Below are positions 45,701 through 48,700 of a stretch of DNA of 64,000 bases, one piece after another (positions within the stretch are counted from its first letter, which is position 1; each line of letters starts with the position of its first letter). Below the pieces are notes generated by a model. The model made no database searches, was not told the origin of the DNA, and was given only the letters and a program-made list of their open reading frames with translations. The DNA lies in NCBI GenBank assembly GCA_030679255.1, contig JAUXTO010000018.1:2973-66972 (forward strand), read 5' to 3'. The position numbers were made by a program, and so were the translations under genes. Source of the stretch: Candidatus Gottesmanbacteria bacterium. Its GTDB lineage: Bacteria > Patescibacteriota > Microgenomatia > UBA10105 > UBA927.

Positions 45701-48700
45701 CGCTTACTGATCAAGGTATTCCAATCGACGACGATATGAAAAAAGGGATTGTTAGGGTCGTGGAGAGCATGGTGATTTCAACAGTTCCAGCAGCTTCCGC
45801 CTACGATGTCCTAGCCCCTCTTGCGACCCAGGCCAAAGAGAAATGGGAAGATTTCCTCACCCGTCTCCCCGTCTTCATCCGGGCCATCACGCTTCCCAAT
45901 ATTGGTGATGTCCCAACCTTTATCTCCGATGTCATGAAGGCGTTAGCCGCCCTCGAGAAGGGGAGTTGGGGCAGCGCGTCGGATTATCCCACGGTAGACG
46001 TGTTCTTCGCCGCCCCCTACACGGGAGAAACTCCAGAGTACGAAGGTAAAACCAACCAAGACGCCATCGAAGCCATTCTCGTGCAACACAACATCACCCC
46101 AACGGACCGCGGAGTCATAGAAGCAGAATATAAATCTCTTCTGAATGAATACGCCAAGGCACTCTTTGCCATCTTACAAAATAGTTCAGCCCCTCCAGCT
46201 CTACCAGATGAGTACTCTATTATTGAGAATCCAACAGAAGCGGATGTTAATGGTTTTTTAGATCGTATAATCTCAAAAAACGTTGATAAGTATGACATCG
46301 ATTTAGTGAAAAAAACAAGAGATGGCGGTAATATTTTTATAACCGGAAGATCAGTGAAAGTGGCAGTAAACAAATCCGGTGTTATTATTGGGCTGATTAA
46401 TACAACTTTATCAGTTGAAAAAGAGAATACCGGAATTATCAAGTATATATTGGTAGACCCTGCATATCAAAGTAAAGGTATAGGATCGAGGCTTGTGAAA
46501 GATTATCAGACTTCTACTTCATTGGATGTCATAGAGTTATATCCGTGGAATCAATTGCTGCCCAGAGGGATATCAGAATCTGATAAAACAGTTGCGTTGG
46601 ATGCGTTATACAAATTTTATACCCAAAATGGTTTTCAAAAAGATGATAAATCTGCTAACTGGATTTGGCGAAGATCACCTCTCCAGCCTCCCGATGGAGG
46701 GTCTCTCGATGGCGGATCACCCCCGACTGGCGGCACTCCTCCTTCTGCTCCACCCATTGCCGGCGCGCCACAAGCTCCTGCCGCATCGGGAAAACCAGGA
46801 ACGGGAAAGGCGGCGGCAGGAGCGCCGATTGCAAAAGTCGATCCCCAGTGCGTCACCGGAGATACGATCCTCAAGCGGAGAAGGAAGAAAGCAAGAAAGC
46901 AGGATAGGAAGATAGAAGGGGCTGGCCCGGATCCTTTGGGATTTGGAGCTTGGGATTTGGAGCTTTGGAGCGGCAGCGACTGGGAGGATATCCGCATTGA
47001 CGAGATTGAAGAAGGCGATGAGATCCTCTCACTCAACGAATTTACCGGTTTATTTGAGCCGGCTCGAGTAGAGAAGCTTCTGAACAAAGGCATCCAGCAG
47101 GTCCAACGTCTTGTTACTGCTTCCGGCAAAATCATCGAGACCACAGCAGAGCATCCGTATCTGCTTCGTACGGGTAAACCCATGGAGACGGCGGATCTGC
47201 GTCGCTCTTTTGATGTGGACCAGTCCTATCGTATGGAAGATCTTCGTCATGACACGGTCATTGCTGCGGCAAACGATGATGTGTCATTTTCTATTACCGT
47301 CACGAAGGAGGTTAAGAAACAGTTGGCATCTCTGTGGCGGTCTCGCAATATGCCCAAGAGATTTGGTCCTGAGTTATTTGCCCATGCAGTGGCGTATTTG
47401 TTCCAATATTTCCGTGTAAATCCGGGTAAAGTCGTGCTTGATGAGGAGTATACAGGATATGACAAGTGGATCATAAAATATTTGTTAACCATCATGCCGG
47501 AAACGACGATTCGCGTGTGGTCGATCGGGAGAAATTCACCGGCACATCGGACAGCATATAGTTTAGCGACGGGAGCAAGAAACTACGAAGAGAAAAAACA
47601 GAAAAAGACCGGGGCCAATTCGATCCTCAGAGGGTTCTTGGCTTCAGAACTGTTACACCCAGAGTTTACAGGGATTCGCAGTCCACGCGGTCTTTTTACT
47701 AAAGAAAATGATACCACGGTTTGGCAGAAAGTCAAGTATCTCAAGCCCGGTATGGTGATCCGGACAGTAGACGGTTGGGAGAAGATTGCCGCGCTCTATC
47801 CCACTGCCCGCCGCCATGTCTATGATATCCAAATTGCCGGCACCCATAACTTCGTCGGCAACGGCATCGTGGCACATAATACTTCGACTGCGCTCAGTAC
47901 GGGCACGAGGGTTGGAGGACTCCCCGGCGACACAGTGAAAATAGTCACCGTGGGCTTCACAGGAGGATCACTGGAAGATTATTTGGCAGAAAATAGTAAA
48001 GACATATGGCGGTTATTGATACGCGCAAAATTAAGAATAGATAAGTTGGGAGTGGATCATCCGGAAATCCAGTGGGACAGGGCTGTCCAGCCCATGAAGG
48101 AAGTTACGGACTTGTTTAACGCTCAGTCGGGGAGCCCTGAGCAGGATGCTTTTCATGCACAGATCTTGGCGGGAGGGGACAAAGCGGACAAAGAGAGCGT
48201 CAAAAAAGCGCTTCATGAAGTGATCGCAAGTCGCAATGTGTTTGATGCTGCCATCGGAGAAAAATCCATCGTCTTAACGAGCGCCAATCTCGAGGATCTT
48301 CTGGAAGAGTCATTTGTGGAGATTGTGTCTGAACATGCTATTGCCCAGGAAAAAGTGCGTTTGCAGGGCATGCTTGATGGGGTGAAGGCGCGTGATACGT
48401 CCGGTGAAGGATCGCTTGTGCGTGAACTTATCAATAATGCCGGGGATAGTCTTTCTCTGGTTGACAATACCTGGACATCGTATCTGGTCGACGCCGCGCG
48501 TTTAGCGGGGGATTTGGACCGATATCTTTCCCAGGATTTCCGTCCGGCTGCTCAGACGGCGATAGACGCACGCGCGCAGTTTGAACGATACGAGGGTCAG
48601 TTACGGGAGAAAAGATCACAGATTGGAGAATTGCGTCAGTTTGGTGCATTTCAGAATCACGCCGAACAGCTGCTCCACGTCGCCGTTCTTGATTTACCCG

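Follow-up and report, generated by a model that had tools for sequence, protein, structure and literature searches.

Positions 46849-47880 of a 64,000-nucleotide stretch of a Candidatus Gottesmanbacteria genome (contig JAUXTO010000018.1; hereafter the window) encode an intein of 344 residues that lies in frame within a giant open reading frame (ORF). It is the second of two inteins in this gene and will be called intein 2; intein 1, of 430 residues and the same family, occupies 33859-35148. All features given here are on the forward (+) strand. We consider it probable that intein 2 is a canonical class-1 intein and a selfish mobile element, in which a central domain with an RNase H fold most likely serves as the homing nuclease. 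The splicing part is that of an ordinary class-1 intein, and what is new is a large intein family associated with the Candidate Phyla Radiation (CPR), its unannotated RNase H-fold module, and its recurrent insertion in linkers. The identity as an intein, the family membership, the fold of the central domain, the place in a linker, and presence/absence differences between homologues of the host protein are observations, and splicing, nuclease activity, and homing are predictions. An earlier note on this DNA, made from the sequence alone, had described a second intein of the same family at these positions, and the 344-residue translation, a Pfam match above the cut-off, and the presence of all catalytic residues bear this out.

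The translation of intein 2 runs from Cys1 to Asn344 and is followed by Thr at position +1. It matches the Pfam family Intein_splicing (PF14890) with an E value of 2.3e-12 and 47.4 bits (cut-off 35.8), and intein 1 matches the same family with an E value of 1.3e-14. A profile of the intein family finds the solved DnaB, DnaX, DnaE, and RecA inteins in the PDB, the DnaB intein with an E value of 1e-17. The AlphaFold (AF2) model of intein 2 has a fold like that of the DnaB mini-inteins, and a Foldseek search with the whole model returns the NpuDnaB mini-intein with a template modelling (TM) score of 0.84, normalised to the target, as well as the SspDnaB mini-intein. The bacterial intein-like (BIL) domain BIL2, Hedgehog Hint structures, and Tk-RNase HII are among the matches too.

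The sequence features of class-1 inteins are present in intein 2, namely Hint-fold blocks A, B, F, and G, Cys1, TxxH, the terminal His-Asn, and the +1 Thr. Block A (CVTGDTIL, 46849-46872) opens with the Cys1 nucleophile, encoded by TGC at 46849-46851. Its residues C1-V2-T3-G4-D5-T6 are invariant in the family alignment, and a CVTGDT-type start recurs in related loci. It is followed by a family-specific polybasic loop (KRRRKKARKQDRK…, 46873-46980) between Hint strands 1 and 2, which is predicted to be disordered, with a pLDDT (predicted local distance difference test) score below 50 at residues 15-42. Block B (TTAEHPYL, 47140-47163) supplies the TxxH motif with T99 and H102, and block B of the Ssp DnaB intein is its counterpart in the alignment; the family alignment shows no variation at T98, T99, H102, P103, and Y104. 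The C-terminal splicing domain with blocks F and G (…VYDIQIAGTHNFVGNGIVAHN, 47713-47880) ends in His343-Asn344. The +1 Thr, codon 47881-47883, is the first residue of the C-extein and the predicted transesterification nucleophile, and is a Thr in 86 of 87 family inteins.

From these conserved residues, a conventional splicing pathway can be proposed. After translation of the giant protein, Cys1 would attack the peptide bond of Gln(-1), and Thr+1 would then accept the N-extein. Asn344 would cyclise, aided by His343, releasing the intein, and the two halves of the linker would be ligated to give …KVDPQ-TSTALS…. The extein junction without the intein (46848/47881) would read …GCAAAAGTCGATCCCCAG followed by ACTTCGACTGCGCTCAGTACG…. 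In its Hint blocks, Cys1, TxxH, His-Asn, and +1 hydroxyl nucleophile, intein 2 resembles PI-SceI, PI-PfuI, and the Mtu RecA intein, and its splicing domain is closest to the DnaB mini-inteins (Ssp and Npu DnaB, PDB 1mi8 and 4o1r). It also shares with the class-1 bifunctional inteins an extra domain between blocks B and F and an in-frame insertion, and its family shares with them a patchy presence among homologues.

One expects to find classical inteins within conserved catalytic motifs of proteins for replication and repair, and LAGLIDADG or HNH endonucleases within the inteins. In the family described here, the inserted domain is RNase H-like, without a family assignment, and of neither the LAGLIDADG nor the HNH type. 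Block A is followed by a long, disordered, polybasic loop, the insertion sites are in linkers and fibre repeats, and several copies per gene are common. A Pfam search of intein 2 found no LAGLIDADG or HNH domain even at E values up to 1. The intein endonuclease types named in a 2025 survey are LAGLIDADG, HNH, Vsr-like, GIY-YIG, and endonuclease VII-like (bioRxiv 10.1101/2025.01.02.630785). A review lists six structural families of homing endonucleases, and a search of it for the term RNase H gave nothing (PMC3384342).

The RNase H-like domain of intein 2, a putative homing nuclease, is encoded by 47206-47571 (intein residues ~120-241). The wider central region (residues ~112-290) has no credible sequence match in Pfam, NCBIfam, PHROGs, PADLOC, or the PDB. 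A profile built from five sequences retrieves 740 of 1.84 billion cluster representatives at E<=1e-3, and 416 of them reach E<=1e-10. Some of these relatives are embedded in proteins as long as 7,694 residues, and many are free-standing proteins of ~140-170 residues that start with M+hEIDQSG+IE…. The AlphaFold model of the domain, based on a 95-sequence alignment, is confident, with pLDDT above 90 in the core, and shows three strands, two helices, a strand, a helix, a strand, and a helix. Structures matching this model include RNase H2A, retroviral integrase cores, RNase HIII, the Prp8 RNase H domain, and PIWI. The strand-helix order is that of RNase HII (Thermococcus kodakaraensis, PDB 1io2) and of the RNase H-like superfamily in general (retroviral integrase core, RuvC, PIWI).

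The conserved residues of the domain are, in intein-2 numbering, D124, Q125, S126, E130, D198, E200, Y201, G227, S230, A232, and H233. Two aspartates are invariant, D124 at the end of strand 1, in an IDxxG motif, and D198 at the end of strand 4, as in RNase HII, and Glu130, Glu200, and His233 are near-invariant. In the model, these residues fall at the positions that hold metal ligands in the RNase H fold. The domain differs from RNase HII in its size of ~125 residues, in the lack of the RNase HII C-terminal domain, in having no detectable sequence or profile similarity, and in a Gln that replaces a Glu. No Pfam or NCBIfam model places it in RNase HII, and the DEDD set with its adjacent Asp-Glu is absent, so that the likeness is one of fold only.

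The central slot is not reserved for this domain. In sister inteins, it is occupied by a NYN domain (PF01936, E 2.8e-26), by DUF3800 (E 1.5e-7), or by an LPD3-like segment (E 5.5e-5, below the cut-off). DUF3800 has been observed in the inteins of the locus L044 and of P0021. The LPD3-like module, which matches Large polyvalent protein-associated domain 3 (PF18798) weakly, has been observed in the inteins of the loci L033 (10001-11131), L034 (10001-11032), L021 (598-1623), and L061 (10001-11101). Downstream of the RNase H-like domain, intein 2 has a segment (…ANSILRGFLASELLHPEFTGIRSPRG…, 47572-47712) that is modelled with low confidence (pLDDT below 50 at residues 242-287). The motif of this segment (…NSILxGFLASELLHPEFTGIRSP…) is kept in P0001 and in the L033 intein, although the central module of the latter is different. 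Because the segment is kept between inteins with different central modules, we assign it on sequence grounds to the intein scaffold.

The free-standing RNase H-like genes are found among ordinary genes or in islands of small ORFs, where they adjoin free-standing NYN genes. In the loci L092, L093, and L094 (~5365-10456), such islands hold free-standing RNase H-like genes together with one to three NYN genes directly downstream of two tRNA genes, and those of L092 and L094 also hold a gene of the 23S_rRNA_IVP family. In L080 (3336-4444), an RNase H-like/NYN pair stands between two genes for surface proteins of ~1,800 residues. These islands may be an integration hotspot or a cluster of selfish genes. 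A location of the free-standing homologues inside rRNA insertion sequences was considered and ruled out, since in their surroundings Rfam detects only two tRNAs and not a single rRNA. CPR genomes are rich in selfish elements, and the homing endonucleases in CPR rRNA insertion sequences (LAGLIDADG, GIY-YIG) resemble the present family in occurring both free-standing and in a self-splicing element (PMC11270868). They differ from it in fold and in host, which here is an intein in protein-coding repeats and linkers, and the free-standing copies that were examined here lie outside rRNA genes.

Taken together, the position of the domain in the classical endonuclease slot, its exchange with nuclease-type modules, its free-standing relatives, and the variable sites of the inteins indicate that it is probably the homing nuclease of the element. 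In the proposed mechanism, the RNase H-fold domain would make the DNA break that drives copying of the element into empty sites, and the family would target repetitive or weakly constrained coding DNA, that is, fibre repeats (…LHVVGQ/intein/TYIxGNLGIG) and Pro/Ala-rich linkers (…LPE/intein/T[ST]…). If the domain is a site-specific DNA endonuclease, it would add a new fold to the homing endonucleases, one whose free-standing relatives fill 740 sequence clusters, and would be a candidate from which new sequence-specific nucleases could be drawn.

A protein search with intein 2 returned 24 relatives, and those whose source is named come mostly from metagenome-assembled genomes (MAGs) of Patescibacteria/CPR. 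A scan of GTDB, with one genome per GTDB species, gave 248 relatives, a lower bound for the number of family copies, and the 75 loci that were kept are mostly labelled Patescibacteria. Many of the intein loci between L003 and L077 are titled 'uncultured Gammaproteobacteria', 'Lachnospiraceae', or 'Planctomycetales' (TPA_asm binchicken MAGs), labels that look unreliable. These relatives, and not a marker gene, point to a CPR origin of the window. The fetched loci and the window together yielded 87 inteins; all have Thr at +1 except one, which has Ser, and [HF]N precedes the +1 residue in the junction table. Most members start with CVTGDT+L+RRRR+K, and this start and the end GTHNF[VI]GNGIVAHN before the +1 Thr are the hallmarks of the family. 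Both window inteins are ordinary representatives of this family, which is large, has not been described before, and occurs mostly in MAGs of Patescibacteria/CPR. In the viral contigs that were searched, only generic matches to the C-terminal block were found, and the family is not evidently phage-borne. Full-text literature searches, whose coverage is incomplete, turned up neither reports of inteins in giant genes nor any of intein nucleases of the NYN or RNase H-like kind, and paired 'intein' with Patescibacteria only in passing mentions.

The insertion sites of the family fall into two classes. Class A lies in fibre-type repeats (…GTTSPxxxLHVVGQ/intein/TYIxGNLGIG…), and class B in the Pro/Ala-rich linkers of very large ORFs (…LPE/intein/T[TS]…), several of which are open across whole 21-kb loci and exceed 7,000 codons. 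Two or three family inteins per gene or locus are common. In L073 (818-4836), a family intein in a fibre protein appears to be split, with its N- and C-terminal splicing parts ~3.3 kb apart in different frames; a NYN ORF and three ORFs of 158-472 residues lie between them.

Both window inteins sit in linkers of the giant gene. The N-extein before intein 2 is a Pro/Gly/Ala-rich linker by composition (…PPDGGSLDGGSPPTGGTPPSAPPIAGAPQAPAASGKPGTGKAAAGAPIAKVDPQ, 46648-46848), and a GNAT acetyltransferase domain (46363-46641; Acetyltransf_7 E 5.6e-6, Acetyltransf_1 E 1.7e-5) ends ~70 residues before the intein. The summed fraction of Pro, Gly, and Ala in the 30-residue stretches before the two junctions is 0.63 and 0.67. 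These are the two richest stretches of the giant protein, in which a fraction of at least 0.6 is reached at only 0.3% of positions. Since the junctions follow the two most Pro/Gly/Ala-rich stretches, the linker location of both inteins, which the earlier note had recognised as flexible Gly/Pro/Ala linkers, is real and not due to chance.

Parts of the giant protein have homologues in other very large ORFs among the fetched loci (L004, L032, L033, L034, L037, and L041), as found by tblastn, and these reveal presence/absence polymorphism. L004 is homologous to residues 9536-11220 of the giant protein, with up to 72% identity in blocks. At the intein-1 site, its …ERAKKPQPLDAILG runs directly into TREFHGDTDGKGTQHS…, with no intein. 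About 500 residues downstream of this site, L004 has an intein of the same family (…QPLDLPE/C…HN/TMIARS…), at a position where the window gene reads …APQDPVVMAKRAL… and is intein-free. The homologues in L032, L033, L034, L037, and L041 carry family inteins at still other positions. This intein-1-free allele came from tblastn against loci that had been fetched with the intein. The earlier note had pointed to intein-free alleles in related genomes as a check, and one has thus been obtained for the intein-1 site and none for the intein-2 site.

Short flanks are shared between sites whose wider contexts cannot be aligned. The first 24 nucleotides after intein 2 match the flank in L033 at 20 of 24 positions and that of the second L032 intein at 18 of 24, against a mean of 8.9 of 24, and the 24 nucleotides before intein 1 match the N-flank in L037 at 18 of 24. 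Such flanks would fit a target-site preference or co-conversion during ectopic homing. Two loci were considered as carriers of the orthologous intein-2 site and rejected: the match of L073 comprises only the intein C-terminus and low-complexity sequence, and L033 has only ~8 C-extein codons in common, the remainder not being colinear. The suggestion in the earlier note that these are homing, mobile elements fits the polymorphism in the homologous giant gene and the short flanks shared at non-homologous sites.

Several observations weigh against a homing-competent nuclease and recent mobility. The strand-1 motif of the central domain is IDQSG, where that of RNase HII is IDEAG, so that a Gln stands at the position of the second catalytic Glu of RNase HII. 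An hhalign comparison with E. coli RNase HII (RnhB) gives a probability of 0.1% and no profile similarity. Enzymes with the RNase H fold usually make nicks or work on RNA/DNA hybrids, and a dimer would be needed for a double-strand break. At the intein-1 site, L004 also lacks ~31 residues of linker on the N side and 8 on the C side and is therefore not a precise empty site. For the intein-2 site, no intein-free allele came to light, the flanking extein having no detectable homologue among 5.8 billion proteins and the fetched loci, and spliced-junction queries of 350+350 residues for both inteins gave no match at E<=1e-3 in the same 5.8 billion proteins. The GC content and the GC content at third codon positions (GC3) of intein 2 are inside the host range and show no sign of recent transfer; a recent horizontal transfer called by composition is thereby ruled out.

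The two window copies are clearly homologous. Aligned by BLASTP, they share 37% identity over 329 residues (E 9e-68), central insert included, and Cys1 and the terminal Asn are present in both. In each of them, the basic insertion follows block A, block B is present (TTAEHPYL and TTAQHPYL), and the central insert contains the motif IG[KR][HN]SPAH, all of which had been noticed before. The reported difference in length, 430 against 344 residues, is correct, but it had been placed in the central insert, and ~64 of the 86 residues lie instead in the loop after the basic stretch, in the N-terminal splicing domain (~33940-34170 of intein 1). The RNase H-like domain of intein 1 (~34420-34851) has Q to L, E to K, and Y to F changes at three near-invariant positions, while intein 2 keeps every conserved residue. 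These changes suggest that the nuclease of intein 1 has decayed and, with three conserved nuclease residues changed, intein 1 may no longer be mobile.

A recent duplication inside the giant gene, or gene conversion between its copies, is very unlikely as the origin of the two inteins; the earlier note had called them close paralogues and had raised intragenic duplication. They share family and type of central domain, and two runs of identical DNA join them. One of these, in the C-terminal block, had been given as 32 nucleotides; the identity holds and the length is 34 (47837-47870 and 35105-35138). The other, of 19 nucleotides, lies at the N-terminal junction. On the 129-residue splicing scaffold, the best match of intein 1 is also intein 2, at 63%, a value that others share. 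Against this origin, the copies are only 39% identical overall, and the ten nearest relatives of each are at 60-67% on the same scaffold, which makes the two no closer to each other than to inteins of other genomes. Intein 2 is nearer to a Daviesbacteria fibre-protein intein (L052; 48% overall) and to the L033 and L038 inteins (67% on the scaffold). The flanks of intein 1 and intein 2 are neither homologous nor repeats of each other, and a segmental duplication of intein plus flanks is ruled out by self-BLAST. Other family members match the 42-nucleotide C-terminal block of intein 2 at 30-38 positions, and a copy from Peregrinibacteria has the same 42 nucleotides as intein 1. Since this block is a codon string conserved across the family, the identical run is uninformative on recent duplication or conversion, and it no longer stands as the sign of recent relatedness that it had been taken for.

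The earlier note had also raised a domestication of the Hint domains, which as autoprocessing modules would cut the giant polyprotein at inter-domain linkers without ligation; we consider this very unlikely. Both copies do lie in linkers between domains of a multi-domain giant protein, a location that recurs in other very large ORFs, and BIL, pretoxin-HINT, and Hedgehog Hint domains, which share the Hint fold, frequently occur in variable regions and in large proteins that are secreted or at the surface. BIL2 and Hedgehog Hint structures are among the Foldseek matches, and intein 1, though not intein 2, has Pfam matches to PT-HINT (19.5 bits, cut-off 27.7) and Hint (18.8 bits, cut-off 29.7), both below threshold. 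However, BIL, pretoxin-HINT, and Hedgehog Hint domains typically lack the +1 nucleophile, mainly cleave, or both, whereas intein 2 keeps the full splicing set (HN followed by T). The residues needed only for splicing are retained throughout the family, in the nearly universal +1 Thr and in a terminal His-Asn in all tabulated copies, and the best matches, above the Pfam cut-off, are true inteins. Because L004 lacks intein 1 and has an intein elsewhere, no site is a fixed processing point, and a nuclease-like module that is swapped between copies is a trait of selfish elements.

A reading to which we would assign a modest chance accepts intein 2 as splicing-competent and takes the RNase H-like domain as a passenger that binds nucleic acid or processes RNA/DNA hybrids, or as a structural spacer, in an element that would now be immobile. 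The Gln in place of the catalytic Glu of RNase HII, the lack of sequence similarity to characterised nucleases, and a composition ameliorated to that of the host are consistent with it, and the free-standing homologues in small-ORF islands with NYN genes could equally be of a defence or toxin type. On the other hand, the invariant acidic residues are at the canonical catalytic positions of the RNase H fold, the domain stands where an endonuclease is classically inserted and gives way in sister inteins to NYN and other modules of nuclease type, and the family combines a high copy number with variable insertion sites. We also put forward, tentatively and as rather unlikely, a stronger form of the selfish-element reading, in which the family is a proliferating intragenomic element that is less bound to its site. 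The RNase H-fold nuclease, swappable with NYN, DUF3800, or LPD3-like modules, and a DNA-binding polybasic loop would target linker and repeat DNA, carry a few flanking codons along, and spread in the giant and fibre genes of CPR bacteria, and the breaks could contribute to modular growth and shuffling of giant genes.

The presence of mobile protein-level elements in very large genes of CPR-like genomes is relevant to the annotation and assembly of such genes, and a giant gene of more than 20,000 codons is notable in its own right. One paper on giant genes does not have CPR among the phyla that it names as carriers of very large genes. The host ORF (3574-64000) has more than 20,142 codons in frame 0 without a stop, and its 3' end lies beyond the window. 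An exact 57-mer from the window end has no match in JGI metagenome contigs. The start is likely the ATG at 3763, from which the gene is called on the Logan contig SRR13727518_11618, and an N-terminal membrane anchor, a transmembrane segment, follows just after this ATG. This contig (36,362 nucleotides) comprises the first 10,457 codons of the giant gene and the LysM and Peptidase_M23 gene (1279-2358) that lies directly upstream of it in the window.

Pfam domains in the giant protein are few and scattered, and comprise ResIII, GNAT, LytR_cpsA_psr, FHA, Fic (weak), and a Ser/Thr kinase (Pkinase). GNAT lies upstream of intein 2, and LytR, FHA, Fic, and the kinase lie downstream. Besides the inteins, the only internal repeats of the giant protein, at 29-56% identity, pair residues 12149-12281 with 14079-14209, 16194-16454 with 17617-17952, 16279-16402 with 19063-19186, and 18001-18098 with 18802-18899. 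A second hydrophobic pair is located at approximately residues 5314-5350.

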